In this document: in pieces, positions 1,229-63,159 of the stretch
Numbering within the stretch: position 1 is the stretch's first letter
Layout: every line of letters starts with the position of its first letter
From: Eledone cirrhosa
Taxonomy: Eukaryota
Reading direction: 5' to 3'
Assembly: GCA_964016885.1 (NCBI GenBank)
Contig: OZ024743.1
Coordinates: forward strand, 59,830,001 to 59,894,000
DNA length: 64,000 bases
Made by a program: the position numbers and the translations under genes
Notes under the pieces: generated by a model
Told to the model about the DNA's origin: nothing
What the model saw: only the letters and a program-made list of their open reading frames with translations
The model's database searches: none

Positions 1229-1230
<2 letters not shown>

Positions 1231-1416
1231 CGAAGGAAATGTGGTAAGGAACCAGGTGGACCATAACGCATCAAAGTACTCAATACTGAAGGTAGTAGAG
1301 TGGGTAATAGGAACCAGTAAGACCCCGACGGCTGATCTCAAGCCGTTTCGACGGTTAATTCTGAATTAGCCGTCGAAACGGCTTGAGCTCAGCCGTCGGG
1401 GTCTTACTGGTTCCTA
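1229..1416 (-). mobile_element. Hairpin-headed short element (family H) copy 1
   Basis: Near-perfect palindrome 1308-1416 (TAGGAACCAGTAAGACCCCGACGG...CCGTCGGGGTCTTACTGGTTCCTA) plus an ~80-bp unique tail 1229-1307, inserted in (TA)n. Confidence 0.85.
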
Positions 1417-1704: not shown

Positions 1705-1830
1705 TAAGAACAAGTAAGACCCCGACGGCTGAGCTCAAGCCGTTTCGACGGCTAATTCTGGCCGTCAGGGTCTTACTTCTCCTATTACCCACTCTACTAC
1801 CCTAAGTATTGAGTACTTTGGTGCGTTATG
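1705..1830 (+). mobile_element. Family H copy 2, internally deleted and 3'-fused to a CR1-type LINE fragment
   Basis: AGTAAGACCCCGACGGCTGAGCTCAAGCCGTTTCGACGGCTAATTCTG|GCCGTCAGGGTCTTACT..CCTATTACCCACTC... runs straight into LINE sequence at 1831. Confidence 0.8.
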
Positions 1831-7398: not shown

Positions 7399-9222
7399 TC
7401 AGGATTTGGGCACCATGGCCCATTCGAGAAGAGAATTACTGTTTGCGGAGACATATCCGGGTGTGGGTGGTTTGTTCGGGATTACTTGGAGGAATTTGTC
7501 CAAAGACTTCTTGAATTTTGTGTGGTCAGTTTCTGTTTTGACGTGTCCTGGTGTGATGTTGAAGAGAGCAGGGCCGATTGAGGTGAAATAATTGTGCCGT
7601 ATTGTTGTTATGAGTTGCGATTTAGATTTTTGAATGGGACGGATAGCACGGGGCCCAAGCCTTGGGTGTATCTTGAAGGCGATGCCAACATCATTTGGGC
7701 AGTGATGATGGAACATTTTCCACATCATGCAGATAATATAACGCTCACGGCGACGTTGGAGTGAGTAAAGTTTCAGGTTTTCTAGTCGACTCCAGTAGTC
7801 AAGGTCTGACATGCCATCTATCTTTTTCGTGATTGCCCTTTGAGGAGCTTCAAGTTTCATGATACTTTGTTTCGTGTGGGGAGACCACAGTGGACAACAG
7901 TATTCAAGGTGTGGTCGGGCAAAAGTAGAGAAGAGGAGGATAATGGTGTGGGAATCTCTCGACTGGAAGGTTCTGAGGATCCAGGAACACATTCTGCGGG
8001 CCATGTCAACTTTGCTGCTTATATGCGTGGCCCAGCTTATGTTGCTGTCCACGGTTACTCCCAAGTCTCTGATGTTGTTAGACGCCAGGAGAGTTTCCCC
8101 GGATGGAAGGGAGTACGGGAGTTTCAGAGCATCCTCTTTTCCAAAGTGGATCAGTTCGAATTTGTCTTCGTTCAGTAACATGTTGTTCTTTTCCGCCCAT
8201 TGGGTAACAGCCAGTAGGTCTGACTGAAGGCTTATTCGGTCATCCACGCCATTGATGACCTTTTGGAGCTTGAAATCATCAGCGAAAATGTTAATGTTGC
8301 TGTGTTTGATGATGTCAGTGATGTCATTAATATAGATGATGAAGAGAAGTGGGCCCAACACAGTGCCTTGTGGGACCCCACTACTGACTTTGGCTGGGCT
8401 GGATTTGACTCCTTCAACTACAACATGTTGGGTTCTATTTGACAGGAAGCTCTTGATCCACTGCAGCAGCTTTCCAGTGACACCAATATTGGACAGCTTT
8501 CTCAGTAGAATGTTATGATCAACCCTGTCAAAGACCTTGCTGAAATCAAGGTAGATAACATCAGTGTTGGAACCCTCTCCCAAGGCTCTCAAAATGTCAT
8601 CAAAGTGATGCAGTAGCTGCGTCAGGCAATCCCTTCCATTACGGAATCCATGCTGGTTGGAGTTCAGCATATTGTTACTCTCGAGGAAGTGGGTCATTCG
8701 CGATCTCACCACTCTCTCAAATACCTTAATGATATGAGAGGTGAGTGAGATTGGACGGTAATTCACGTCAAGGGATTTGTTTCCCTTTTTGAAAACTGGG
8801 ACAACAGACTGGGATAGAAGGTTTTCTGGCACATATCCAGCATCCAGTGAGTTCCGCCACAGATTGGCAAGAGGAGATGCAAGTTGGTGTTGACACGCCT
8901 TCAAGACACAAGCAGGGAACCTATCGGGACCTACTGCTGAATTATGCTTGATTTCCTTTATTGCCGCTAAGACATCAGGGGCGCCAAACGTTATGTCCGA
9001 TAAGGTGTAATGGGGAGTAACATCGCCGATACAGCCCAGATCGGCCATATCAGGATTGCTGAAAACAGAGCAGTATTGTTTCTGCAGTATCTCACCCATG
9101 GTTTTAGCATTGTCTTGAAGAGTGCCATTTTCATCAATTAGAGGGCCAACAGTAGAGCCAGTGATTTTGTGTTTTTTTTGCAAATGAAAAGAACACTTTG
9201 GGATTGAGTTTGATCTTCTCAA
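7399..9222 (-). CDS. LINE ORF2 C-terminal part: reverse transcriptase
   Basis: NYRPISLTS, QHGFR, YLDFSKVFDRVDH, GVPQGTVLGP, FADD. Open to the stop at 7399. Confidence 0.93.
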   Translation of the reverse strand: MRRSNSIPKCSFHLQKKHKITGSTVGPLIDENGTLQDNAKTMGEILQKQYCSVFSNPDMADLGCIGDVTPHYTLSDITFGAPDVLAAIKEIKHNSAVGPDRFPACVLKACQHQLASPLANLWRNSLDAGYVPENLLSQSVVPVFKKGNKSLDVNYRPISLTSHIIKVFERVVRSRMTHFLESNNMLNSNQHGFRNGRDCLTQLLHHFDDILRALGEGSNTDVIYLDFSKVFDRVDHNILLRKLSNIGVTGKLLQWIKSFLSNRTQHVVVEGVKSSPAKVSSGVPQGTVLGPLLFIIYINDITDIIKHSNINIFADDFKLQKVINGVDDRISLQSDLLAVTQWAEKNNMLLNEDKFELIHFGKEDALKLPYSLPSGETLLASNNIRDLGVTVDSNISWATHISSKVDMARRMCSWILRTFQSRDSHTIILLFSTFARPHLEYCCPLWSPHTKQSIMKLEAPQRAITKKIDGMSDLDYWSRLENLKLYSLQRRRERYIICMMWKMFHHHCPNDVGIAFKIHPRLGPRAIRPIQKSKSQLITTIRHNYFTSIGPALFNITPGHVKTETDHTKFKKSLDKFLQVIPNKPPTPGYVSANSNSLLEWAMVPKS

Positions 9223-10420
9223 TGGCCCAGGCCTCTTCAGCTCTTCTCTGATTGTTGATGAGGATCATTATGTTGTTTTGGAGGTTATGTTTTTTAATCT
9301 CTAGTGATGAAATTGCAGTCAAGTTGATGTGTTGCTGCTGACGGTATTTCAGCTTGTTGATTTTTTTGTTCGTTCTCTTAATTTTTCTGATGAGCGTTTT
9401 TCTATTTCTAGGGATTCTGCTCTTAGATTTGTTTATAGTTCTTAATGGGGTGTGTTTTGCACATATGTTTGTAACAGTGTCCACAAATGTCTGCCAGGAC
9501 TTTTTGATGTTAGTGGGTGTATGAGTGTGCGTGAAGTACCAGTCGACATGTGCAAGATCATGACTGATCGCTTCCCAGTTTGCATTGTGGAAATCCATAG
9601 CGTCAAACGGATGGACAGGAGAGATGACATTGGGTTTGTATATTGGACGGTGGAATCTCAGATTACAGAGAACCATGTCATGATCAGAGAGTAGAGTTTT
9701 CTCCACTGCAATATTGTGGATATTGTCAGTGTGATTGCTGAAAATTAAGTCTAGGACGTTTTTGTGGCACCTCGTTGGTTCGAGCGCCAGTTGGGATAGG
9801 AAGAAATCATCCATGAAGTCAAGAAGCGATTCCACTGGTTCCCTGTCAGAGGTTGTGGCAGAAGAACCTGGTGGCAGGCTGTTTGTGGACCAGTCAACTC
9901 CGGGGAGGTTGAAGTCCCCCATCATTAAGATGTTGTCAGGGTGACACTCTTGGATGAAACACTTTATGCTGTTGAGGCATTCCTTGAAGCATGGTACAGG
10001 CGTTTGGGGTGGCCTATAGAGCCCAACTACTATTAGGTTGTTGGTTTGACTGAATACAGTGACTGCTTCACAGTATCCATTAGTGAATATGTTCATAGCC
10101 TCTGTTGAAAAAGAATTATGGACATAAATGGCAGTCCCGCCCTTTCTTCTGCCAGCGCGATCAGCCGGGATGGCTTTGAAATTTTTCACTTTCACCTCGG
10201 CTTCCAAGTGGAGGTTACTGAGATGGGTTTCAGTGAGGACGAAGAAAGGGATGTGGTTTGGATGGACATCAATCCAGTCCTCCAGGAATTTGATCTTCCA
10301 TTTTTGAGTATTGGTGGAAGGGCTGATGCCTTGGGCGTTAAGCAAAAATGTAGAGGCGAGAGTGGATGGTTTTAATTGTTTTGGTGTGTTGTTAATTTGT
10401 TTGTTTGTTAATGGCAGCAA
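9134..10420 (-). CDS. LINE ORF2 N-terminal part: apurinic-like endonuclease
   Basis: FLLNAQGI, VLTETHL, GGTAIY, GLYRPP, MGDFNLP, VLDLIFSN, LSDH. Frameshifts at the A8 run 9172-9179 into the RT frame. Confidence 0.9.
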   Translation of the reverse strand: MLPLTNKQINNTPKQLKPSTLASTFLLNAQGISPSTNTQKWKIKFLEDWIDVHPNHIPFFVLTETHLSNLHLEAEVKVKNFKAIPADRAGRRKGGTAIYVHNSFSTEAMNIFTNGYCEAVTVFSQTNNLIVVGLYRPPQTPVPCFKECLNSIKCFIQECHPDNILMMGDFNLPGVDWSTNSLPPGSSATTSDREPVESLLDFMDDFFLSQLALEPTRCHKNVLDLIFSNHTDNIHNIAVEKTLLSDHDMVLCNLRFHRPIYKPNVISPVHPFDAMDFHNANWEAISHDLAHVDWYFTHTHTPTNIKKSWQTFVDTVTNICAKHTPLRTINKSKSRIPRNRKTLIRKIKRTNKKINKLKYRQQQHINLTAISSLEIKKHNLQNNIMILINNQRRAEEAWAIEKIKLNPKVFFSFAKKTQNHWLYCWPSN

Positions 10421-11289
10421 TGGGAGTTTGTGCAGTGGGTGATAGTGGAGGGTGGTGCTGGGTGATAGCTCGAATGTTTTTTTCCAGTTCTTTTGCCAGA
10501 TTCATTATGGCTAAAAAAGAGGAATAAGTTTCCTGTTTAGAAGACTGTTGGTGACTGTGGTAGTGGTTATTTTTATGTAGGTTATGGTTTTTGTTTTTGC
10601 TTTTATTTTTAATTTTATTTTCATTTGTCCGACGGGTCCCCGGGAGATGGGTAAAGGGACAATCCCGGTCTAAACACAATCTGTCTCGCAGGGAAAAGCG
10701 GCAGATTTGTGGATTCCTTGTTTGAGTTATTGGTGGTTGTGTTGGTGTTAAATTAGAGTATGTATTATGGTGGTAGCTGTTTGTGGGGATAGATCGTTTT
10801 GTCCTAGGTAAATGGGTGAATTTGCAGCCACTATCCGTACATATTCTATAGCGTAGAGAGTAGCGGCAAATGATGGGGTTTCGAGTGGGTGGGTATGTGG
10901 GTGTGTGTGTTGTGAGAGGTGTAGATGATGGTTTGAGTAGGATTTGACGACCTTTGTGGACTGTGGGAGGGAGAGTTCTTGTTCTGGTATTAGAAGGTAA
11001 ATTCCGTGAAATAGCAGTAGCCAAAGATGTTGTAGTAGTAGTAGTAGTAGTAGGCAGAGAAGATGTTGGCAGTGGTGATGATTGGACTGCTGGGCCAGAG
11101 AAAGGATGTGGCGTTTCCTGCTGTGGGACAGAGGCTACTGGGAGGTCAATAGTTTCATTTAGTAGATCGGCCATTGTTGATGAATCAAGGAGTGGTTCAC
11201 ACTGTTGTTGTTGTTGTTGTCGTTGTTGTTGTTGCTGTTGTTGATGTTGTTGTTGCTGTTGTTGTTGTAGCTGTTTTTGTTGTTGCCGT

Positions 11290-11321
<32 letters not shown>

Positions 11322-11582
11322 TTGGACAGCATTCGAAGAAAAAACACACCGTAGTTTATCCAAATGTTTATTGATTAATTTAAAAGCAATTTCGATTTGC
11401 TTTAATTTATTTTGAATCTGTTGTTCAGATCGAGTTTTCAAAAGTTGAACTGTACGTTTAGCAATGTCGTTCGGACATGAAGCATCTATGTCTTCTGTTT
11501 GGGTAAGGTAATGCCATGTGTTTATTAGAATGTCGATTTCATTATCAGACCAGTTCTGTTTGGATTTTTGCTGGTTAGCCAT
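10392..11582 (-). CDS. LINE ORF1: Myb/SANT-like N-terminus, polyQ and polyT tracts, two CCCH-type zinc fingers
   Basis: First ATG at 11582 (MANQQKS). Motifs NWSDNEIDILINTW, a (CAA/CAG)n Q-run, CRYSLRYRICTDSGCKFTH and CRFSLRDRLCLDRDCPFTH. Confidence 0.8.
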
Positions 11583-11703
11583 TCTAGTTTTGAGTGTGTG
11601 TGTTTTAGTTAAGTATTTCAATATATATATATTTTTTTTTCATTTATTTTTGTTTTTTGTTTTTCTTGTGTGTGAGTGAGAAGATTATATAGATAAATAT
11701 GAG

Positions 11704-12515: not shown

Positions 12516-12516
<1 letters not shown>

Positions 12517-12701
12517 ACGAAGGAACTGTGGTAAGGACCCAGGTGGACCATAACGCTCCAACGTACTCAATACTTAGGGTAGTAGAGTGGGTAATAGGAA
12601 CGAGTAGGACCACGACATCTGAGCTCAAGCCGTTTCAACGGCTAATTCTAGACTCCAGAACTAGCCGTCGAAACGGCTTGAGCTCAGCCTACTCGTTCCT
12701 A
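12516..12701 (-). mobile_element. Family H copy 3
   Basis: Tail plus hairpin with copy-specific arms AGGAACGAGTAGG / CCTACTCGTTCCT, in (TA)n. Confidence 0.85.
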
Positions 12702-16768: not shown

Positions 16769-16904
16769 TATACATACATACTGCTGGGTTAGTTCGGACC
16801 AAGTGGTCGAAAAGGCCAATGCTCTACCGTCGTGTTCTTGACTATCTTCCTGTATATATATATATATATTATATATATATATATAATATATATATTTATT
16901 TATA

Positions 16905-19505: not shown

Positions 19506-19961
19506 GGTATATATACAATTATATATGCATATATAAATATAAACAAATATATACATATAACACACACACATACCCACACATAAATACGCATATGTTCAAC
19601 AAACGTACTTATACCAGTAAACATATGTAAACATATATATACATACATATATGTGTGTATATAAATAAATACAAACATATATATATACTCACACGGATAT
19701 ACATACATGCACCAACTCCAACTCATACGCATACGCAATAATAATCCATATATATAGATATATAGGAATATGTTCAAAACCCCGACGGCAGAGATAAAGC
19801 CGTTTCGACGGCTATTTCTGGACTAAAGAAATAGCCGTCGAAACGACTTGAGCTCTGCCGTCGTGGTCTTGAACATTTTCCTATTACCCACTGTAGTACC
19901 CTAAGTATTGAGTACTCTGGGGCGTTATGGTCCACCTGGTTCCTTACCACACTTCCTTCGT

Positions 19962-20060
<99 letters not shown>

Positions 20061-26818: not shown

Positions 26819-28431
26819 GTTTTTACTCTTTGAGTCTCAGTCATTGATGTTAGTTAACTGGAAAGTTTGTTGAAATGAATATGAAGCCACTACCTGCAGC
26901 CTCAGATATTCAGGACGTATCGGAGGGTTCTTGCTGTTCCCAGCAAGCATGCCTTTTGAAGCGTTCCAAAAAGCGTGAAGGGACCAATTTTCTTTAACCA
27001 TCCCTGGAAACTTTTTGAGATAGTCCCTAGTGCGCCTATGACAATCGGGATCACTTTGACATCATGGCAGTTCCAAATCCTTTTTACCTCCAATTTTAAG
27101 TCCTGGTATCGGTTAATTTTCTCCTTCTCCTTCTCTTGCATTCTCGTGTCGAATGGGCAGGCCACATCCACAATCTTTTTTCTTTGTCCAAAACCACCAG
27201 GTCAGGTCTATTGTATTCCAGTTTCTTGTTCGTCTGTATCCTAAAATCCCACAGCACCTTCACCTGATCGTTTTCCATCACCGCCTGGCTTATGCTAATA
27301 CCACTTTTCAGAATGTGGTAAATTGTTTACTTTGCATAGGTGCCAGTGGATCACCCTGCCCATCACATCATGTCTCCAGCCCTTATAGTGAGTCTGGGCT
27401 AGGTGTTTACACTCAGATACAATGTGAGCCACAGTCTCCTCTCTCTCTCCACAGATCCTGCACAGTGGGCTAGCCTCCCCCTTGTAAATGTGGTGTTTCA
27501 ACCACTTCGTTTTGAGGGCCTGCTCCTGCGCAGCCATTAATATTCCTTCTGTAGCCTTTTTAAGGTCTCCTCTTTTCAACCAGTTCCATGTCTGTGGATC
27601 TCTAAATTCAGTTTTCTCAAAGAAGGTACTATGAAGGGATTTTTCCTGAAGGCTGCTCTTTCTCCTTGATGTTATTTCCTCCTTGGACATCCCTTGGCCT
27701 ATTGTCTCCTCCTTCATTTCAGCTCTGAGCATTGGCTCCTTACTATCAGTCACGTATTTGTGTAGGTTGTTTTTCTCCATCTGAACACAGTCCTCTATGC
27801 TGATATACCTCTTCCACTCTAAGATCTCCTTAATAGAGTCTATCGACATCACTCCTCTGGTGGAATATATTGTAGATAGTCAATAGCTTCCTAGTCTTCC
27901 TATCCATTTCTTTTTGTTCAGCAACATTCCATCTCAGAATTCCCGCGCTGTACCTAATAATAGACACAGCTCTGGAATTTACTGCACTTATGGCATTCCT
28001 ACTTTTCAGATGTGACTTTAATACACTCCTTACTCTCCGAAGGTATTCAGTTCTTATCAATTCCTTCATTTTTTTGTTCTTGATGTCATCTGCCTCCAGA
28101 ACGCCCAAATACTTGTATCCTTCCTCAGAGTCAATTTCCTTGATCATCTCACCTGTTGGTATCTGGATTCCGTTACTTCTGCTCAGCTTACCCCACCTCA
28201 TCACAATGACTCCACACTTACTAATACCAAATTTCATACATATATCATTGCTGAAAATACGGACAGTGTCAACAAGCACATCCAACTCCTTCTCACTGTT
28301 CCTGAAGAGCATAAGATCGTCCATGAAGTGGAGGTGATTGATGGTAAGCCCTCCCTTTCCCAACCTGTATCCTGCTCTCATTTTTCGCAGTACACTGGTC
28401 AGGGACATCTGGGCAAGGGCAAACAACACCT
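26819..28431 (-). mobile_element. R4/Dong-type family 2, 5'-truncated (RT end, zinc knuckle, RLE)
   Basis: INHLHFMDDL, YKYLG, AAQEQAL, CRICGEREETVAHIVSEC, RHD, NRPDLV, DVACPFD, PIVIGALG. Flanked by (TAA)n on both sides. Confidence 0.9.
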
Positions 28432-28456
28432 TGTTATTATTATTATTATTATTATT

Positions 28457-31400
28457 ACAGTAGCATTTATCTTGCTTTATTTTCATACGAGTTATCACCA
28501 AGTCACAACCAGTGACCTTAAGAGACAACAAGGTCCGCCATGTTCAAGAAAGAACATACATACTCACACATGCATCTTTAGTGTTTAGACTTGTGATGGA
28601 CTTATTTTGACAGAATCTTCCTTAGTATATGGGCAGTTCCCATTAGTACTATCTTTTGTATTTATCCTATAAGCGGGTTACCTGGGATTTGCGATAAGTA
28701 ATCATTAGACCACTTAGGTATCATTCCCAGAGCGCCTACAACCACTGGTATTGTTTTAAGTCTCAATTTCCAAATTTTTCCAATTTCTATCTTAGATCCT
28801 TATACTTGCTCAATTTTTCAAATGTTTTTATAGATACATTCTTGTCTATTGGAACGGACATATCAGTTAGCAGGCATACCCTCTTTTTAAAGTCCTTCAA
28901 TATTATATCAGGTCTATTTGCATCTATTTTTCGATCTGTTTGGATGCTAAAGTTCCACAAGATTGAGATGTGATCTTTTTCAAGTAAGGGAGGTGGTTGA
29001 TGGTCCCACCAATTCTTTTGATGGGGCAGGTCAAAATGCTTACACATTATCCAATGTATGTATTGTGCAGCTCTGTCATGCCTGTTTAGGTATTCGGTTG
29101 GAGCTATAGGACTGCACATTGAAATTATATGGTCAATGGTCTCTGGTTGTTTTTTGTATACACGGGATAATGGGTTGCATCCATTTTTTATTATGTTGGC
29201 TTGGTAATTTTTTTGTTGGCAGACACTGATCTTGTGCTGATATAATCAGTCCTTCAGTCTCCGATTTCAGTCCAGAGGATGCCAATCACTGATGGGTTAA
29301 AGTTTTGTCAACATCAGGATTGTTAGCTCGTTCTGGGTATTTTCCATACAGAGGCTTTTCTTGCCATTTCTTAGCCAGTTTCTGTAGCAGTTCTTTCTTT
29401 GCAGTTACTTTTGCCTGCTTTGCTTTTTCTGTGTTTTCCATTTCAGCAGTAAATGGGACTTCTGAAATCTGTAGTCCATTACTGTATCTTTGTGCATCTT
29501 TTGTAATGGAATATGATCTTTTGATGCTTTCGTGTTTCAAAACGAGTTTGATCATCCAATCATGTGATTACCTTAGATATGTAGATCATCCAATTGTTGC
29601 AGTTTTCAACGCAATGTCTAACTGGATTAACCCACGTCCTCCTTCTTTTCTAGGGAGATATATTCTATCTGTATCTGCCTTAGGGTGAAGCATTCTGTGC
29701 ATGGTTAAGAATTTTCTAATTTTTGTATCGTGCGTAGGGATCTCTCTGCTTGACCAGTTAATGACATTGCAAATGTAGGTTACTACTGGTATGGCAAGCG
29801 TGTTTATGGCATCGATCCAATTCCTTGCATTCAATTCCGTTCTTAAGATTGCTCTTACTCTGCGGTAACATTCCTTCCTTATCCTTTCCCTCATTGTCGA
29901 GTGCTTGATACCGTCTCCTTCACAAACACCTAGATTTTTGTAAGTTTCCTCTTGGTCAAGTTCTCTTATCACACTCCCCCGATCAAGATTAATGTCTGAA
30001 CTTTTCAGCAGCTTTCCTCTGGTGAACGTTGCTTTGGCGCATTTATCTAGTCCAAACTCCATTTTAATGTCATCACTGAACTGCTCCACAGTGGATAATA
30101 GCCCTTGCAATTGTTCATCATTTTTTGCAAAAAGTTTCAGGTCATCCATGTAGAACAAGTGATTAATGGTTTTGTCATAGACTTTATATCCATGTTTTGT
30201 TTCATTGAGCATTTTACTTAATAGTATAAGTGCGATGCAGAATAAAAGCGGTGATAAAGAGTTACCCTGAAAAATTCCACAATTAATATTAACTTCTTCA
30301 GCTTCCAGTGATTTTGTGTCACTATTCAAAAGGAGTGTCGTTTTCCATGTCTTCATACTGAATAACAAAAACCTCCTAACAACGGGAGATATTTTGAAAA
30401 TCTCTAAACATTTTTCAATCCAACTGTGTGGCAAACTATCGAATGCTTTTTTATAATCTATCCAAGCAATTGATAGATTTTTGTGTCTATTATGACAATC
30501 TTCCAGTATCATTTTGTTAACCAAAAGCTGATCCTTACAGCCATATGAGCCTCGTTTACACCCTTTCTGCTCAATGGGAAATAGGTCATTTGTTACCAGG
30601 TGGTCATATGTATATTCAGTTAGGACTGATGTTAACATTTTATACATTGTCGTCAAGCAAGTTATCGGTCTGTAATTTTGGGGATTGTTTGTTTCATCAT
30701 TCTTCGGAAGCAGTAATGTAATGCCGTTAACTAGCCATGATGGTATCTTTTCTGGCTCCTTAACTATTTCATTGTAAAGTTGGGCTAACAGCTCATGTGA
30801 CTCATGTGACTGTTATATTTTCCCATGTTTGTTCCTCAAGGTGAGCTGTATCTTTCATTTGTCTGTCTCTCCATGGGGCATGTATGCTATGAACTTTTTC
30901 TTCAGTCCAGATCTTTTCCCAGAATTCTTGCACTTCCACCTTGGGTGGTATTGATTTAGCAGTTATTGTTGACTTACCAATTTTTCTGTAGAAGTTTCTT
31001 TGGTTGTTTTTGAACATATTATTGTCCTTATAGAATCTAGATCGTTTTTCAAAGCGCCTTATACGAGCAGCTTTGGCCGACACTTTTTGCTTGATTATTT
31101 CTATCAGCATGTCTATGTCACTTGTTGATTTTATACTGTACTTTCTTTTCAATTTTCTAAGTTTAGTTTGTTTAACATGTTCACCTACTTTATAGTTTGT
31201 TAAAATTTCTATGTCAGATCGGAGAAGGTTTATTTGGCGATTGATGTTCTCCTGCCAATTAGATTTCTTGTGGGAATTCCTTTGTTTTTCCATCTTCACT
31301 CTACATAAGTGAGTGGGGACTTTAGCAGATGCATAATAGAGATGATTTAAATCAGTAATGTTTAGTTTGTTTGTGATGATAATGTATGTGAGAATTATGT

Positions 31401-31540
31401 TAGTCTTGTGTATTATATTTTGGTTCTGTTTGGAGTTCTGGATCTTAGGGAGGGTGTCTCGTTGCCCCATGTCAGATTCTTTCATTTTCATCCATTCGAT
31501 CATAATTTCATCCTTCAAGTTGGCAAGTTCATTCTCATTC
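28457..31540 (-). mobile_element. R4/Dong-type family 1, long degenerate copy (N-terminal region, RT, RLE)
   Basis: ORFs 30802-31542, 29586-30656 (EQKGC, WIDYKKAFDSLPH, GIFQG, HLFYMDDLKL), 29286-29555 and 28787-29119. The 3' end abuts (TAA)n. Confidence 0.92.
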
Positions 31541-31548
31541 ATTTATGG

Positions 31549-32287
31549 ATTACAGAATGTGGTAAATTGTTTACTTTGCATAGGTGCCAGTGGATCACCC
31601 TGTCCATCACATCATGTCTCCAGCCTTTATAGTGAATCTGGGCTAGGTGTTTACACTCGGATACGATGTGAGCCACAGTCTCCTCTCTCTCTCCACAGAT
31701 CCTGCACAGTGGGCTAGCCTCCTCCTTGTAAATATGGTGTATCAACCACTTTGTTTTGAGGGTCTGCTCTTGCGCAGCCATTAGCATTCCTTCTGTAGCC
31801 TTTTTAAGGTCTCCTATTTTCAACCAGTTCCATGTCTGTGGATCTCTGAATTCAGTTTTCTCAAAGAAGGTACTATGAAGGGATTTTTCCTGAAGGCTGC
31901 TCTTTCTCCTCGTTGTTATTTCCTCCTTGGACATCCCCTGGTCTATTATCCTCTCCTTCAGTACAATTCTGAGCATTGGCTCCTTACTATCAGACACGTA
32001 TTTGTGTAGGTTGTTTTTCTCCTTCTGAACACAGTCCTCTATGCTGATAATACCTCTTCCACCTTCAGATCTCCTTAAGTAGAGTCTATCGACATCACTC
32101 CTCTTGTGGATCATGTTGTAGATTGTCTATAGCTTCCTAGTCTTCCTATCCATTTCTTTTTGTTCAGCAACATTCCATCTCAAAATTCCCGCACTGTACA
32201 TAATAATAGACACAACTCGGGAATTTATCGCACTTATGGCATCCCTACTGTTCAGATGTGACTTTAATACGCCTCTTACTCTCCGAA
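31549..32287 (-). mobile_element. R4/Dong-type family 2 internal fragment
   Basis: DVDRLYLRRSEGGRG..AAQEQ..CRICGE. Near-duplicate of 27305-28040. Confidence 0.88.
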
Positions 32288-34178: not shown

Positions 34179-34460
34179 TGAATGGTTGGGATTCAGAAAT
34201 GTGTCGCGAGAAATATTCTAAGAAGCAACTATAGGAATGCACCTAACTAAAATGTATCTTCAATGTCACTTCGGCAGTGTATATATCACGGTATAACTAA
34301 CATTCCATAGCAATCGTTATATCACTAACAGTATTCATTTTATCAACCGCAGTAATTTAGAACTATAATGATAGCCAGAGAGTGTCGATTTTAAATTCAA
34401 AAATCACATCGATGATAATTGTTTAATAATAAAGGATTATATTAAACAACGAGAACAAAT

Positions 34461-35774
34461 ATGCCTATATTCGAAGTTTCTACAGAATTTAATATCCAAA
34501 ACGGATCAGGTTTCGATATGAATGAGAGTTCACAGGAGATTGAGGATACACCTACTATTTGGACGCCTGAAATCGTAGAAAGGATTACATCAGTGGTTTT
34601 CATTATGATCGCCACGATTGTGGGTAACCTAACTCTAATCGCAGCCATATTCTGGAAAAGGTCTCGTCTGGTGAAAAGAGTAAATATATTTCTTGTGAAC
34701 TTAGCTATTGGTGACCTGACAGTAGCGATGGTTACAATGACCACGGAAATTCTCTTCATTGCTTTCGGAGAATGGATATTGGGGGAAGTCGTTTGTAAGA
34801 TTTGCGTTTATCTGCAGATAGTAACACTGGCCAGTACAACATTTCTGATGACTGGTATGAGTATTGATCGCTACCAGGTCATCGTGAAGCCACTGCAGTC
34901 TCTGAGAAAACGTCCAAAAATTCGAACGAAAGTTATTCTAGCTTGGGTTATGGCTTTTATATTCGCAATTCCACAGCTCTTGATATTTGTTCAAGTAAAA
35001 GAAACAAAATCCGATGGAAGCACACAGATGAAATGTGTGAGTAGAGGTTATACAGGAGAATGGCAACGGAAAATTTACTTCACCTTCCTTACAGCATACA
35101 TTTTGATCATACCAGGTGCCGTGATGTTTTATTGTTACGCGAATATAACACGCGTTGTATGGAGCAGAGCGAACCATATGCCGCAGATAACATATAACAA
35201 CAAATCTGTTCAAACCACGAACCGTATTTCAATAAACCAGTCTCTTGTTTCGGCCTCCAAGCGCCGCGTGGTCACAATGACTTTGACGGTGATCATTGGT
35301 TTCCTCACATGTCTCACTCCATATTTCATAGTGAATCTCATTAGAATATACAGTAACTACACTATAGGTATGAAGAAAACACTACACGTTTCTGAAGCTA
35401 TCTTTATGACACATAGTGCTCTAAACCCGATACTTTACGGTATATTCTCATTACGAATGGAACATTTCTATAGACTGATTAACGTATGTTTATGCTTTAT
35501 ACCAGTGAGAAGCGTCATTGAAAGAGACACAAGCGTAGACAGTTTAGGTCACATGAATACATTAAGTATGTTACAGCTGAGGTTTGCTCGACTAGGAAAC
35601 AGAAACGCTGTGCAAAGTATTAATCAAAAGAAACAATCGTTCCAAAGGAAAAGTTTTCTGCGAAAGAATGTAGGCCATGCCATAAAGACAACCTTTCATC
35701 CCAAGTCGAATTCAGTACAAACAACTATAGAGAACACGAACATGCGGCCTGCAAGTGGGCTATCAAATGTATAG
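34461..35774 (+). CDS. Class A (rhodopsin-like) neuropeptide GPCR of the vasopressin/CCAP-NPS/GnRH/achatin receptor superfamily, 437 aa
   Basis: Seven hydrophobic segments with GN (TM1), NLAIGDL (TM2), W..G...CK, SIDRY, AW....F.IPQ, CLTPYF (TM6) and HSALNPILY (TM7). N-glycosylation sequons NGS and NES. Uninterrupted ORF. Confidence 0.95.
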
Positions 35775-41413: not shown

Positions 41414-42620
41414 CTAGTGCGACCGGTGGAAATTCCCCCGAACGAAAAACAATTAAAAGGAGCTATTTAAGAAAGAACGGATCATCTGCGTTTTTAAATT
41501 ATATATATGTTATTGTTGCTTGTGCAATAACTGATACAAGAATATACAGTGACAATTTATACAACACTTAATATATATAGCATTCGTTAGATTTAATTGT
41601 ATTGAAACTGCAAGATCAATATATAATTGCATATTCTTTATTACGCAATATTTTATCAGGATTAGTTTACATAATATACAATTATTTTAAACAAAACCTT
41701 ATAGAGAATATGCAGAATATTTACATTCACCTGATTAGTGTCAATTCCTTTACAAATTACAACGCATTTACTATGCTCAGATATATCTTAATATCTCATT
41801 GCATGCGATATTTCTTTATTAGAGGTTTATTAGCTTGCCACCTTTGCATATCAGTGTTGAATACATTAATTTTTACATTTGGCTGTCTGTGTTCTCTTGA
41901 GACAGCTACATATAATTGTCCATGGCTGAATACTGGCTGAGGAAGGAACATACCCACTTTATCATATGTTTGAACCTGGCTCTTGTTGAAAGTCATAGAA
42001 TACGACAGTCTTAATGGAAACTGGTTACCTTCCAAAGTAAAAGGGAAGCTGGGATCTCTGGGGACTAACTTTAGTCTTGGGATCAAAATACGTCGGCCCA
42101 TCAAAGGACACTTGATATGAGAAGCATCGATGGAATGTTGATGCAATCCCATTACTTCCAATCTTGTACCGTTGTATAAGCCGTTCTGCATTGAAATATT
42201 CCGTAGAAGCATTAGTATTAATCCTGCTTTTAACTGGAGTTAGCGAGGCGGCATCACCGAAGGGGTGAATGAGTTTAGAAATTCAGTAGAATATCTGTCA
42301 GCTTCTGAAGGGTCATCCGTAATCACTCTATCAGTATTATGATAAGTATGGCTGTTACCACGTAGTTGTCTGAGAACCTATTCGTTGGTAAATAAGCAAT
42401 CAGCATTATTTGGAGATAAAATTACTCGTGTTCTTTTCTGATGTTGCGTTGTATCGTTGAAAGTTTGTTTCATCAAAAAATAATTTACACATGAGAATCG
42501 AGTCACCTCAACATCATCTTCATTAATATTTAGTTCTTCAATTTGTGATGTTGGTTCATTGCCAAGATGTAGTAGCCTTTAGGTACGCAACTGGTCGGTA
42601 ATTTGCAGCCTCATTTCCCT
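41414..42620 (-). mobile_element. Helitron 3' fragment (Pif1-like helicase pseudogene + terminal hairpin/CTAG)
   Basis: MLLRN..GLYNGTRL, IPRL, QFPLRLSYSMTFNKSQ, VFSHGQLYVAVSR. The minus-strand end reads CGGGGGAATTTCCACCG (hairpin) then CTAG (41414-41417). Confidence 0.88.
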
Positions 42621-56570: not shown

Positions 56571-56995
56571 TCGGAAAAGAGTCAGGACACCGACGGCAGA
56601 GCTTAAGACGTTTCGACGGCTGTTTTTGGACAGAAATATCCGGCGAAACGGCTTGAGGTCTGCTGTCGGGTTCCTGACTGTTTTCCTATTACCCACTCTA
56701 CTACCCAAGGTATCGAGTACTCTGGAGCATTATGGTCTACCTGGTTCCATACCACACTTCCTTCATTATCTAGCTCCCACCTCCGTAGTGGAGCACTTTT
56801 CAACCCTCCCACGCCATATCCACGACTTTTCCACCAAGCTCCAGTTTCTTCTAACTAAGGTCCAGATATAGCCGCCGCAGCGGCTTGAGCTCTGCCGTCG
56901 GAGTCCTGACTATTTTCCTATTACCCACTCTACTACCCAAAGTATCGAGTACTCTGGTGCGTTATGGTGCACCTAATTCCTTACTACACTTCCTT

Positions 56996-56998
<3 letters not shown>
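56571..56998 (+). mobile_element. Family H tandem copy: inverted arm + R + U + R (232-bp period)
   Basis: Hairpin copy 56571-56767, unique spacer 56768-56857, and a second non-hairpin copy 56858-56998. ACCCACTC occurs at 56691 and 56923. Confidence 0.82.
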
Positions 56999-57640: not shown

Positions 57641-60600
57641 CTTTCTTTATTAACCACAAGGGTTTACATAAAGTAGACATTAAGGACAGTGCAGGACAAT
57701 ACAGGACGGTACAAATGGGCATTTCTGCGTGTAAAAAACAAAAACATAGGATGTAACAAAAAACATAACAATGAAAAATTCCCCAATAGTGGGGAGACTT
57801 CGGAGGGTCATTTGTGGAGAAAGCCCATTAAAAAGGCCACAGGGACCCTGACCACGAAGGCAAGTGCCCTCTCCCAGTTTTTCACCTTTAATTTACAGAC
57901 ACATACTCAGAGCAGGCCCATTCACTAGGGCCATTCTTGCATCTCTCACCCATCTTTCAACAAAATGCTGGGAAGGGAGCACTTCCTTCTCTACTCTGAT
58001 TTTCCTTTTCAAATGAAATTTGAAAAAGTCAATCAGGGCTTCACCGAATAGGTAAGTGCTCGTCTTCAGCCTTTTCAAACGTGTACACCATGCTATCTCT
58101 TTCGCCATGGCCTGCAGACAGATAAAAACTGCCTGCCCTTCTCGGCTAAAGGAAGAGGGTGGGGCACTCCTCACGATGAAGTCAGCTGATAGCTGGATCC
58201 TTCCTACACGCGACAGCAGGTGTTCGATATAAACCCACGAGTCAGCTTTGCTCGGGCACTGGACGAGTGTGTGCAGGACGGTTTCGTCGCCCTGCGCGCA
58301 TCTCGGACATGCCCGGCTGACGGCACCTCCATGCCTGTAGAGTTTATCCCGAACTGGAAAAGCTCCTCGGTTGCACTGCCAGGCCAGCGATTTCTTGAAG
58401 TTGTCCATAGGCCCCGGCCCGAAAGTTCTTCCGAAGAGATTGGCGAGTTGATTTTCGTCGACGCCTAGAGTTTCCCCAAGTACGTCGTCGCTCTTCCCCT
58501 CCATTAATCCTCTGTAGAACGCCAAGGTGGAGTTTCCACCGATCACATTGCCCGATTGGTCGATGGCTGTGAGCGCCTGAAGACATTCCAGTCTCCAAGC
58601 CCTCCCTCTCCTTTTTCGATTGACCCAGGTCTGCAGCTCCGTCAAGGAGACGAGCTGGGGAAAGACGTGTCTAGCAAACGGCGACCACACCTGATCACCG
58701 TCGAGGAAGAGGTGGAGATGTCGTAGCCTGAGCGCGTGTCTGCGCATCATCAGCCACGGCATTCCCAGCCCTCCATGTAGCGGGTGTTGACAGCAGATGG
58801 AGCGCCTTACCATCGGTGCGCGTGCCTTCCACAAAAAGGCAAAAGAGCAAAAGCTCCAGCGCAGTCAGGCTGGGCTTAGGACAAGGTACGACGGTCAGGC
58901 GGTAGTAGATGACGGACGCCATATACGCGTTAGCCACCTCCGCTCGACATTTCAGGGATAGCTTCCTGTTGGCCCATATCTGGGTGAGAGAAGCCACTCT
59001 GCTCATCATCTCGTCCCAGTTTTTGTCCGTCTTGAGGTCCGGACCGAACCAGACCCCGAGAAATTTAACCAGTCCGTCCGTCCAGCGCCCGACGACGCTG
59101 TTGGACGGCATGGACCTGCCTCTCCGGGTGCCAAGCTGCAAGCCCACTGACTTTTCCTGGTTGATCATTGCTCCTGTCACCGCTTCGTATTCTCTTAGTG
59201 TAGTGCCGATCGCCTCCATGTGTTTGGCGTTCGACATCACTACGGTGAATTCGTCCGCATATGCTGACACGGATCTTCCGCATCCTAGTTCACGCGGGAG
59301 CCCCTTCAAAGTCTCCAGTTTGTGCAGAAATGGCTCGAGAGTCAATACGTACAAGAGGGACGAGAGGGGACATCCTTAGTTGACCGAGCGCATGATGTTG
59401 AACGGTTCCGAAAGGTGACCGTTCACTCTCACCACAGAGCAGATGTCACTGTGCATGGCAGCGATCCAGCCTCTGAAGACGGGCCCAAAGCCAGCCGCCC
59501 TCAGGACTGCCGCTAGGTAACGATGGTCGACCCTATCGAAAGCTTTCGACTGATCTAAATTGATCAAGGACCCACCCGTGCCAGGTTCCCTAGCTACCCT
59601 CTCTACGATGTATCGCATGAGGTGGAGGTTGTCGTGGATGGATATGTCGGGAATGGCGCATGTCTGCACCTCACCCACCGGACCACTAACGACAAGCGCC
59701 AACCTCTTTCGTAGCACCTTGGCCAAAGTCTTGAACTCTGTGTTTAGCAGAGTTATGGGCCTAAAATTATCTATGTTATCCCCCTTGTTCGGATCCTTTC
59801 TCAGCAGCGCCACAGCTCCTCGGCTCACAGAGCTGGGAATTCTCCCGTTCTGTTGCCAGTTGCAGTAGACGTCCGCCAAGAGGCCTCCGAACAAGTCTGG
59901 CATCTGTACGTAAAGTTCTTAGGGCAGACCATCCATACCAGGCGATTTACCCCTTGTGCAGCCAGTCATTACCTACCGTACTTCAGCGGTTATCGGCTTT
60001 TCGAAACACTCCGCCTCAGTGGCCGAGAGCCGCGGCAGTCCGTCGAGGTAGACACTAGAGTCCATCCCTCGATCCGGCCCGCCGCTGCTCCCGAACAGCT
60101 GAGCAAAGTGTCACTGAAAAGCTTCACATATTTGCCCGGGATCGAGTAGCATGCGCCCGTCGTGAGCCACCAAAGACCGGATCTTGGCTTTGTTGCCACG
60201 CCGCGTCTCCGCCACTCGGGGCCATTGAACGGCTTTCGTCCCCTCGTGTATGGGAACACGCAACCTAGCTCTGACAACGCAGCCTTCGTGCTTTGCATTG
60301 AAGAATTGGTCAAGGGCCAATTTCGCCGCAAGTACGTCGATCGCGATGCCTTTCTAAGCGCCTCGTCTAATTTTCTAACTAATTCTCCCACTGCTCTATT
60401 TTTCTCTATTGCTAAAGCCTTACTAAACCTAATGGACTCTATTCTAATTGCTCTTTTCAGAGCAAACCACCACTTGTTTTTGACGATGGCCCCCGTCAAC
60501 GCCCGCTTAACTAGTTCGCTAATCCGGTCTCTGTAGGCCTTGCGCGCTGGTAAGGACGCGTTTAGCTTCCAGTAGCCGGGTCGTCGTCTATGAAGCCTAT

Positions 60601-63159
60601 CTATGTCAAGCACACAGATCACGAATTTGTGGTCCGTGTAGCTGACTATCTTGAATTGTTGACAGCCTATGCTAGATCTATCCATTTCCCTACAAAATAC
60701 CGATGCGGTTTCTCCAAGTCCATATTCGCACATTCGGGAAATCCATTCGGTACCTGTTAGACAGTTCAAAACGCAGGAGCAGGTTGGTGAGGCTCTTGCA
60801 CATTCCTCCCCTATCCGCTAATCCCACACAGTCCCCGCGTGCAACTAAGATCCCGTTCCAGTCGCCCACTAACACTAAAGAGCTGGACGTTCCAAGAAAG
60901 GTCTCCAGACGCCGGAAGAAATCAGGCAGCCCTGCTCCTATCGGGGCATAGACGGCCACTAGCCTGAAAGCTTGCCCGTCTACGCTGGTCACGTCTAACA
61001 ACACTAACTTACCTTCTGGGTCCAGGAAGATGGCTCGTATAGCGAGACCCAAACCTCTCCGAAAAAGCACAGCAACTCTTCCCCCCGTTCCCGGACGGCT
61101 GGGAGATGCGTACACATCGTAGCCGCCGAAGATCGGTTCGAAGGCCCGTGCTTCACAGTTTCTGGTCTCGCTGATGGCCAATACATCTATGTTTAGTGAC
61201 CTGAGGTCGTCGAGCAGGTGGCCCTGCTTCCATGACGACCCCAAGCCACGCGCATTTATGCTGCCTATTCTGAGTGAGGTCATGTTGAAATGGAGTGGAA
61301 AAGATGGGAAAGACCACTTACCTTACTTCTTGTAGAGGAAGGATGGTTTCTCCATCCTTTTCACTGCTTGTGGCCTCCTGAGCAAGGATGTCCTTATAAA
61401 TCCTCCCGGGTTAATGATGGTGATGGTATTGGTGTTTGTGATGATGGGGTTGGTGATGCTGGTGTGGATGGTGGCATAGCTGTCCTATCTTTTTTGTCTG
61501 ATAGTTTATTTATTAACCTCTGTATTTTGTTTTTGGAGGGGGACGGAAAAGGAATGTTTCTTGTTTAGCTTCTTTTTCTTTTTTTTCTTTTTTCCTGAAA
61601 CCGTTTCCCACTCCACGTCGTCTCAATTGCTCTCCAGTTGCGATAGGTCGGGGATTGTTGTGGCGTGGAGTCGGCTGTAGGCGCTGGTGCTAGTTCTGCG
61701 CGTTGAGGGTGGTGGAGGTGTTGGTTTTGTTACTGTTGCTGGGGTTGTTGCTGCTACAGTTGCTTCTGTTGGTGCTGCTACAGTTGTTGCTGCCATTTCT
61801 GCTGCTGGTGGTGTTGATGGTTGAGTCATTGGGTGGGTTAAACAGGTGACCTCAACTTTTTAGCCTGAGGGCAGAAAGCCCTTAGGTGTGTTCCTTCACC
61901 ACAAACGACACACCTAGGCCTTCTACCCTCGACGATTACGTTGAGGTGGCTGCCGTCATGAGGTCTATTACCTCTGGGATCTCCTCAATGCTTTTCTGGT
62001 CCGCTTGGATCAGGAGCTCCAACCCAGATCCGGACCAGTTCCCCTGCTTTTCTTTTGGTATTTCGATTAGTTTGGTGTTGGCATCGATGCCGGCGAGGAC
62101 GGCAGCCATTAGCCAGTGAATTTCGATGGCCGATGGAACGTGGGTGACCCTGATCTTTACGAGTCTCTGGTCACAATAGCTTGGGACGACTGTCACGTCA
62201 TCGCTTATTAGTGGGGCCATGGAGTGCTCTCTGGCCTCCTGTGGTGTTCCAAAGAACACGTCCACGGTTCCATATTTCTGTCCACGTTCGATGTTGGATT
62301 TTTTTGCCCACACATGACCAAAAGCTTTTTTGGATTTGGGACTTGGATGCCCGTTCCACTCGGCGCGATTTTATGTTAATCGTCCGATAAAACACGGTGC
62401 ATAGGCGCCTATGCTCTATTTTATTATGTGGCGCCGGGGTGGGGGTGGGGGTGACCTTGTACCCATCTTTCTTTTCCATTCTCTTAGCTTCATCTAATTC
62501 CTCCTGAGTTTCCCAGATTGTTTCGCATATTTTGGCTCCTTTGGCAACAAGGTGTTCTTATCCGCATTGTTGTTGTTGCTGTTGTTGTTATTGTTATTTT
62601 TGTTATTGTTATTTTTAGTTTCAGTTGCGGTGGTAGTGGCGTCAGTGGTGTTCGGTGTGGCTGTGTCGATTTTGGGTGAATCCATTTCGATGTCACAAGA
62701 TATTAATTTTTTTTTTCTTATGTTTCTGTTATCGCTGTGGTGATGGCGGGGGTGGCGGCTTCAACACCTGCAGTCATTGGTAATTGCGGGAAATAAATGT
62801 CTGCATGAGACAAATTTAAATTATTGCTACTGCTTATATTTTTAGTGTTGGCAAACGTAGTAATATTTACAATGGTGGTGTTGGTGTGAGGTGTTAGTTT
62901 GTGAGGAAGGCTCTCAGCTACTTGGTGTAGCTGTGAGTCGTCCATGATTTGTTCAAAGAAATGTTTTGTTTGATAATTATAAAAGTTTAAATTTTGGGCT
63001 CAAAGCCCCAATATTTTTGAGTGTCCTTTTCAGAAATCAATGTATGTGCACCTAGAAACAATTAACAACAAAATTCTTCCATAAATGGTAATTTTAAACA
63101 AATGAAAACATCAAACCTTTGCTGAGTTCACGATGATACGATTTCCTAGATAGGTCGGC

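Follow-up and report, generated by a model that had tools for sequence, protein, structure and literature searches.

The window analysed here is a 64,000-nt stretch of the Eledone cirrhosa genome (contig OZ024743.1, positions 59,830,001 to 59,894,000, forward strand), in which all six predicted stretches of a short palindromic repeat, family H, were located (Table 1). We numbered the repeat from the A of the AGTCCAG motif (+1), the inner end of a complete arm. Hairpins of ~50 bp computed for copies 1, 3, 4, and 5 (DNA MFE -50 to -68 kcal/mol) bore out the fold-back head that had been predicted. Copy 5 is extended toward an ORF start by 88 bp of leader from a parent Penelope-like element (PLE), which had previously been overlooked. 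Since this leader links copies 5 and 6, the two constitute one insertion, and the window contains five insertions plus an older single-arm relative rather than six separate insertions. Copy 6 is likely to be the product of a template jump, and the tandem-leader layout of copies 5 and 6 recurs at another locus, L253. The tail of copy 2 is interrupted at the start of a LINE reverse transcriptase (RT) fragment, and a member of the copy 4 subfamily with upstream PLE sequence was found at L275. Elsewhere, the window contains LINE fragments with RT, AP-endonuclease, and zf-RVT domains (1806-2918, 7399-11639, 27295-32126, and 57893-61322), a 442-aa single frame with a rhodopsin-family 7TM domain (34446-35774, plus strand; E 7e-49), and a Pif1 helicase 2B fragment that is probably Helitron-derived (41796-42239, minus strand).

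Table 1. Family H copies and related features, in window coordinates
Feature	Position	Strand	Composition
Copy 1	1229..1416	-	Tail-bearing arm plus inverted arm
Copy 1, tail-bearing arm	1229-1362		About +6 to +139 of the PLE unit; 79-nt tail at 1229-1307
Copy 1, inverted arm	1363-1416		+60 to about +5
Copy 2	1705..1830	+	Inverted arm joined to a tail arm starting at about +37
Copy 3	12516..12701	-	Second subfamily; ~10-nt deletion inside the inverted arm
Older diverged single arm	16791..16851	+	+1 to +60, ends in (TA)n
Copy 4	19763..19962	+	Third subfamily; inverted arm to +1, tail arm from near +6
Copy 5	56571..56767	+	Fourth subfamily; inverted arm plus unit +5 to +141
Parent PLE 5' leader	56768..56855	+	About +140 to +226; aligns to the full-length L194 leader
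Copy 6	56858..56998	+	Second unit (+1/+2 to +141), same insertion as copy 5; ends in (AT)n

A genome-wide search showed that family H is very abundant: an exact 33-mer at the arm/tail border occurred 21,701 times in the 3.0-Gb genome, while the control gave 0. Because only two of the six window stretches have this 33-mer, the family is larger than that count. Copy 1 has at least 40 genome matches with 96-100% identity.

Four of the first 30 exact-tail matches had no left arm and shared a common upstream sequence, leading on through a 3' UTR to a GIY-YIG coding end. For the reconstruction of the parent, 20 of 40 related loci were retrieved. In four of them (L181, L185, L189, and L194), upstream pLTR is followed by the 139-nt unit, ~95 nt more of leader, and the start of an ORF; L185 measures ~3.7 kb from +1 to the 3' end. 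The ORFs of L194 and L185 are apparently open. The former encodes 720 aa, with an RT plus a C-terminal GIY-YIG domain, the latter without CCHH in the translated ORF, and carries the motifs RWR, DKT, YRDDG, CxCX5C, YIG, CxxC, and CxH. It has 2163 homologues, and in 109 aligned rows CxCX5C was present in 104, CxLC in 105, CxH in 108, DKT in 102, and RW[KR] in 104. Pfam and PDB sequence searches with the ORF gave no significant match. Its fold model (pLDDT 93) had TERT 3du5 (E 1e-8) and 9swn as best Foldseek matches; PLEs are the sister group of telomerase RT. The insertions display the anatomy of Penelope-like pLTRs, namely a partial tandem, an inverted 5'-truncated copy, and a one-sided 79-nt tail on either arm, together with the (TA)n insertion preference of the Hydra clade. 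According to the published description of this clade, it targets (TA)n and its diagnostic features are those of this ORF (PMC8557442); in the part of the supplement text that was searched, four motifs of the parent family were absent. By motifs and anatomy, with motif blocks compared by eye, the parent is thus classed as a Hydra-clade PLE.

As some family H copies continue into a PLE ORF and full-length elements carry the 139-nt unit, family H represents the shortest PLE insertion product and not a MITE or SINE. It is no new SINE/MITE class either; the structure itself is the known PLE arrangement of inverted copy plus tail in its shortest form. The original prediction's pointer to PLEs was sound, since copies continue into a PLE ORF and the palindrome appears to be made anew with each insertion, and the autonomous PLEs ending in the family H tail, which it proposed to look for, are present (L181, L185, L189, and L194 among the loci). 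A Neptune-like PLE was rejected as the partner, as 30 GIY-YIG loci and 20 longer stretches had no end in common with family H and contained incidental insertions only. The GIY-YIG search yielded 10,595 candidates in the genome. Two Neptune-like PLEs (L131:3260-6525 and L126:1758-5355) are themselves near-perfect palindromes of 3.3-3.6 kb, the one at L131 with a one-sided tail and (TA)n ends.

The distal ends of the palindrome were fixed and flanked by (TA)n, as had been predicted. Both arms abut (TA)n: the one without a tail begins at +60, the tail-bearing one at +139 or, in some subfamilies, two positions further. TATATA/ATATAT follows the left arm in 111 of 137 palindromes, the tail terminates in (TA)n, and TAT is found at both RNA sites, +60 and +139.

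The centre behaved differently from the prediction of a fixed TCTGGA-N-TCCAGA axis. In 75 junction rows not selected by centre (the double-tailed insertion L211 counted twice, once per orientation), we found 68 distinct junctions, with either arm trimmed, microhomology, fillers, or A/T runs, the last seen in L209 and L150. Perfect zero-loop palindromes accounted for 12 rows and centres with 0-2 unpaired bases for 31, while both arms were complete, with fillers or short upstream extensions, in 13. Within one subfamily, a genome-wide count gave 10 exact G-form centres and 3 C-form centres; these are two among many joins and not the flip/flop isomers that had been suggested. Of the top matches to copy 1, 17, a set selected by its junction, have that one junction in common; limited re-amplification of a finished palindrome may therefore occur.

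The co-variation of the two arms was real, although not in the form originally described. Of 100 classifiable palindromes, 90 had matching subfamily-diagnostic segments in their two arms, as compared to 13% expected, and the mean distance between arms of one copy was 3.1 versus 6.9 in shuffled pairs (lowest of 2000 shuffles, 6.3). This set comprised 137 of 140 palindromes, three being removed for broken left arms, and 67 of its members had been picked for similarity to the window copies. Most of the 10 discordant cases differed by a single base; L197 and the double-tailed L080 and L211 have arms from different subfamilies. On a rough tree of 140 arms from 70 unselected copies (50 columns), left arms did not cluster apart from right arms, with 45 label changes against a shuffled mean of 39.4. 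Moreover, another left arm was nearer than the copy's own right arm in 45 of 70 copies and tied with it in 19. Thus, the arms agree at the level of the subfamily, and the variants are not private to individual copies.

We then considered where the arms stop. The first 27 Mb of contig C1 supplied 93 unique tail arms (two duplicate rows dropped), a sample tilted toward younger subfamilies by the requirement for the exact 33-mer. Of these arms, 56 end between -7 and +8, 23 further 3', and 14 at or beyond -10, positions -1 to -7 being partly chance alignment to the opposite arm. The +1 edge is not absolute, as some arms end at -3, -10, -22, or -28. It lies within a TYAGTY motif, which resembles the initiator consensus, with a second candidate A at -4 and a weak, variable TATA-like box at -29. 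A CC(A/T)6GG box, similar to a CArG box, is found about -62 from +1 in 56 of 69 upstream-bearing copies (e.g., L190 and L171). The upstream region showed no U6-type likeness when compared with five host U6 genes, which ruled out the U6-type Pol III promoter suspected from the spacing; tRNA-like A/B boxes picked out by eye on the opposite strand were abandoned given the PLE origin. About 30 U6 snRNA genes lie in tandem, with ~1.8-kb spacing, at G000:C19:31780605-31840331. For the 40 arm ends that were unambiguous, the base preceding +1 was T in 20, C in 6, G in 11, and A in 3, while all upstream-bearing copies listed have T or C at -1. The excess of G over A is significant (p = 0.0008, or 0.004 minus two doubtful cases, at an assumed 34%). 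In L1 insertions, capped 5' ends are described as being marked by an extra G (PMC11702581). The stopping of arms near one point, often with an extra G, thus likely reflects a capped RNA start, and we infer that +1 is a capped Pol II start.

The same region holds a hammerhead-like motif, which consists, in order, of CCCC, a YUGANAA core with a variable position 7, a long stem-loop II, GAAA, a stem III of 5-6 bp, GUC at +39 to +41, and GGGG. In 62 upstream-bearing copies, the core pair is U3-A8 in 54 and a mismatched C3-A8 in 8; a U3-A8 hammerhead variant has been described (PMC4209133). The full hammerhead topology was the MFE structure in one of the five folds shown. The palindrome axis falls in loop II, and therefore, short copies carry only the 3' half of the motif; likewise, with a start at +1 in loop II, the 5' copy on the RNA would be without half of the predicted ribozyme. 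The arm stop is 41 nt upstream of the predicted cut site. Among the 379 palindromes surveyed in the retrieved loci, several other (TA)n-flanked families had their axes at or just before a hammerhead core. One of them, a second family of ~125-bp (TA)n-flanked palindromes (L129:7795-8012, L138:5959-6150, L002:842-942, and L014:1270-1413), has a canonical core a few bases from the axis in 14 of 21 members and is likely the same type of product from another PLE. At least 10 further families of short (TA)n-flanked palindromes were noted, several with hammerhead-like motifs (L019:2998-3130, L024:2490-2642, L009:2107-2370, L028:780-997, and others).

The lengths of the two arms proved to be coupled. 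Both arms were seen in 63 unselected insertions, which comprised 52 short/short, 10 long/long, and a single mixed one (L215), whereas 17.5 mixed insertions would be expected if the arms were independent; five long pairs were assigned by hand, and no full partner arm was detected for 30 of 93 anchors. Thus, the arm stop is a property of the template. This coupling also ruled out ribozyme cleavage at +41 as the RNA 3' end combined with independent strand transfer. Long insertions are built like short ones, with one arm ending at +60, the other at +139, and the tail on either side, and either arm may be the longer. In L176-L178, L192, L212, L235, and L243, the longer arm is tail-less and the tail sits on the shorter one, which means that fold-back copying cannot have produced either arm from the other. 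Two unusual arrangements were also observed: L253:4119-4842 contains three tandem PLE leaders with identical junctions at about +254/-3, produced by either one jump and a later duplication or a small circular template, and in L234:917-2058 a long tail arm is followed by an inverted non-overlapping upstream segment, like in L1 twin priming.

We propose, with a probability of roughly 75%, that family H matches the first ~139 nt of a Hydra-clade PLE and that its hairpin forms at each insertion by double priming, run-off, and head-to-head end-joining. The diverse junctions (68/75), the fillers, and the zero-loop palindromes argue for two end-joined target-primed cDNAs and against fold-back or flip/flop. 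Identity with the pLTR and leader, (TA)n distal ends with TAT, the variable centre, the pile-up near +1, and the coupling of the arms are all seen directly in the copies. We infer a double-strand cut, double priming, a single RNA for both arms, a Pol II start, and NHEJ/MMEJ repair. By analogy with Poseidon in vitro, where two RT start sites bound the tail and both strands were extended (PMC11167929), the element protein would make a double-strand cut in a (TA)n tract, and a cDNA would be primed from each target end at the fixed RNA sites +60 and +139, each with TAT. Here, 3 nt match at the priming sites, while Poseidon in vitro is described as priming without homology (PMC11167929). Both cDNAs would run off the 5' end of one likely capped RNA and be joined head to head by NHEJ/MMEJ repair. 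Long insertions would result from priming on a pLTR copy with the 3' UTR upstream of it, and the short copies, without the upstream promoter region, are predicted to be dead on arrival. Leader-containing templates are evident from window copy 5 and L253, and short transcripts from 3' pLTRs may also act as templates.

Several alternatives were weighed against double priming of this kind. Originally, the hairpin had been predicted to be regenerated by fold-back at a fixed point or kept symmetric by conversion, and self-priming on an antisense template has been proposed for PLE palindromes (PMC3846280). If one cDNA folded and copied itself, arms of the same subfamily (90/100) and microhomology at many junctions would be accounted for; however, a fixed point is incompatible with 68 distinct junctions in 75. 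The minimum hairpin loop is 3 nt, and the 31 of 75 centres with 0-2 unpaired bases are under it. Fold-back also fails to fit the copies with both arms complete plus filler (13/75) or the arms of different subfamilies in L197, L080, and L211, and it is largely refuted by the long insertions listed above, whose tail-less arm exceeds the tail-bearing one by kilobases. We therefore consider it very unlikely, and conversion is not needed for the symmetry of the arms. The high copy number and the one junction repeated among near-identical copies could suggest a non-autonomous palindrome of fixed structure (MITE, Helentron/HINE, or SINE) that is copied in its entirety and whose arms are kept alike by conversion. 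As the main route, this is refuted by the 68 distinct junctions and the direct continuity with the PLE ORF, the tail end has no terminal inverted repeat, and the idea is scarcely credible. A MITE or Helentron/HINE identity was rejected specifically by the variable centre and by a partner that is an RT element and not a DNA transposase or Rep-helicase; the three-repeat Helentron/HINE reading does not hold because variation is confined to the 5' repeat, the 3' repeat being constant, and because the parent belongs to the RT elements. A Pol III SINE was rejected as the upstream region is unlike the five host U6 genes and Rfam gave no family at gathering score in the window, only generic hairpins by E-value below it. 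Non-LTR retrozymes did not apply either, since the short copies, which begin within loop II, are inverted and not tandem units with complete hammerheads.

Two further alternatives were considered. Double priming could be combined with a +1 edge that reflects RT stalling at the folded hammerhead, or cleavage of a long or tandem transcript within loop II, instead of a transcription start. This is consistent with the axes of other palindrome families lying at or within hammerhead motifs, with arms that exceed +1 by 3-30 nt, and with the upstream pLTR sequence being seamless in four of four full-length copies. Nevertheless, it leaves the non-templated extra G at -1 in 9-11 arm ends unexplained, the stop is 41 nt upstream of the predicted cut site, and the arms share their fate (one mixed insertion of 63), unlike what stalling of each enzyme would predict; we regard it as unlikely. 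In an LTR-like strong-stop scheme, priming would occur in the leader, cDNAs would jump independently to the 3' repeat, and family H would represent double failures. The repeat is indeed present at both RNA ends, template jumps occur in window copies 5-6 and L253, and L215 is a mixed insertion. However, independent jumps predict 17.5 mixed insertions of 63 where one was observed, and the coupling of the arms leads us to reject them, making the scheme highly improbable. Run-off of two cDNAs from one likely capped RNA remains our preferred explanation.

Comparison with known systems places family H among PLEs with some features of its own. As described for the Hydra clade by Craig et al. 2021 (PMC8557442; Hydra-1_Obim and Penelope-13_HM), the parent has a single ORF with RT and C-terminal GIY-YIG, the motifs DKT, RW[KR], CxCX5C, CxxC, and CxH, in blocks resembling by eye the Hydra rows of the supplement, a (TA)n target, partial tandems, an inverted 5'-truncated copy, and a one-sided tail. 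In contrast to that description (PMC8557442), the parent measures ~3.7 kb versus generally <3 kb (a typical, not diagnostic value), the tail 79 nt versus 30-40, the hammerhead is atypical (U3-A8 core, ~54-nt stem-loop II, and 6-bp stem III), and leader-only palindromes make up most of the copies. Poseidon PAc of Anolis (Frangieh et al. 2024, PMC11167929) is reported to have two internal RT starts just downstream of the hammerhead, bounding the tail as in family H; both strands of AT-rich DNA are cut and extended, and ribozyme cleavage is dispensable. Its sites lie in the ORF, 30-40 nt apart and without target homology, whereas those of family H are in the leader, 79 nt apart, and each with TAT; the sections of PMC11167929 covered here give no account of an inverted structure or a fixed 5' stop. 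The palindromic Penelope of Adineta vaga (PMC3846280) and the opposite-strand hammerhead pairs of Schistosoma (PMC4209133) share with family H head-to-head inverted pLTRs and an optional tail, TATA/Inr-like pLTR motifs, solo truncated pairs 100-700 bp apart, and the U3-A8 core variant. They differ, according to these descriptions, in their low copy numbers and in having been read as self-priming on an antisense template or simple truncation, without junction statistics. L1 twin priming (PMC11702581) resembles family H in that both target ends prime, joining is by NHEJ/MMEJ, and capped 5' ends carry an extra G. L1 inversions, as described, copy adjacent non-overlapping parts of the RNA, whereas the family H cDNAs copy the same part from fixed sites, which gives a palindrome. 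Non-LTR retrozymes, as presented in 10.64898/2026.07.22.740005, are likewise small non-coding PLE pLTR derivatives, but consist of tandem units with a complete hammerhead, while family H copies have an inverted layout in which the 5' half of the motif is missing.

The inverted copy, the tail, and the two start sites are thus already in print, in the sources as cited. In the literature covered, with subscription papers, Repbase, and Dfam outside the search, we found no account of palindromes made of leader alone whose 5' stop is fixed within a hammerhead, nor of the 79-nt tail and the coupled fate of the arms. Family H is best explained as the smallest insertion product of a new PLE family of the Hydra type, and its value lies in the junction statistics. 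The mechanism behind inverted and tailed PLE insertions was called open in the descriptions cited (PMC8557442 and PMC11167929), while PMC3846280 favored self-priming. We give even odds to a broader proposal, in which both target ends prime one capped RNA that starts inside the hammerhead, leaving an inactivated ribozyme in the 5' copy and an intact one in the 3' copy only. Under this proposal, the majority of insertions would be abortive and consist of leader-only palindromes, and several further (TA)n-targeted families of the genome would follow the same rule. If this is true, head-to-head PLE palindromes are double target-primed and not self-primed. Each family H copy is also a ready ~50-bp hairpin, if transcribed; heavy A-to-I editing has been described for palindromic repeats in frog and for Penelope in lizard (PMC5625713). 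For annotators, abundant MITE-like hairpins in (TA)n-rich animal genomes may be PLE ends. Last, the family offers at least 2 x 10^4 independent junctions whose priming ends are fixed, enough for models of PLE insertion to be tested by counting.
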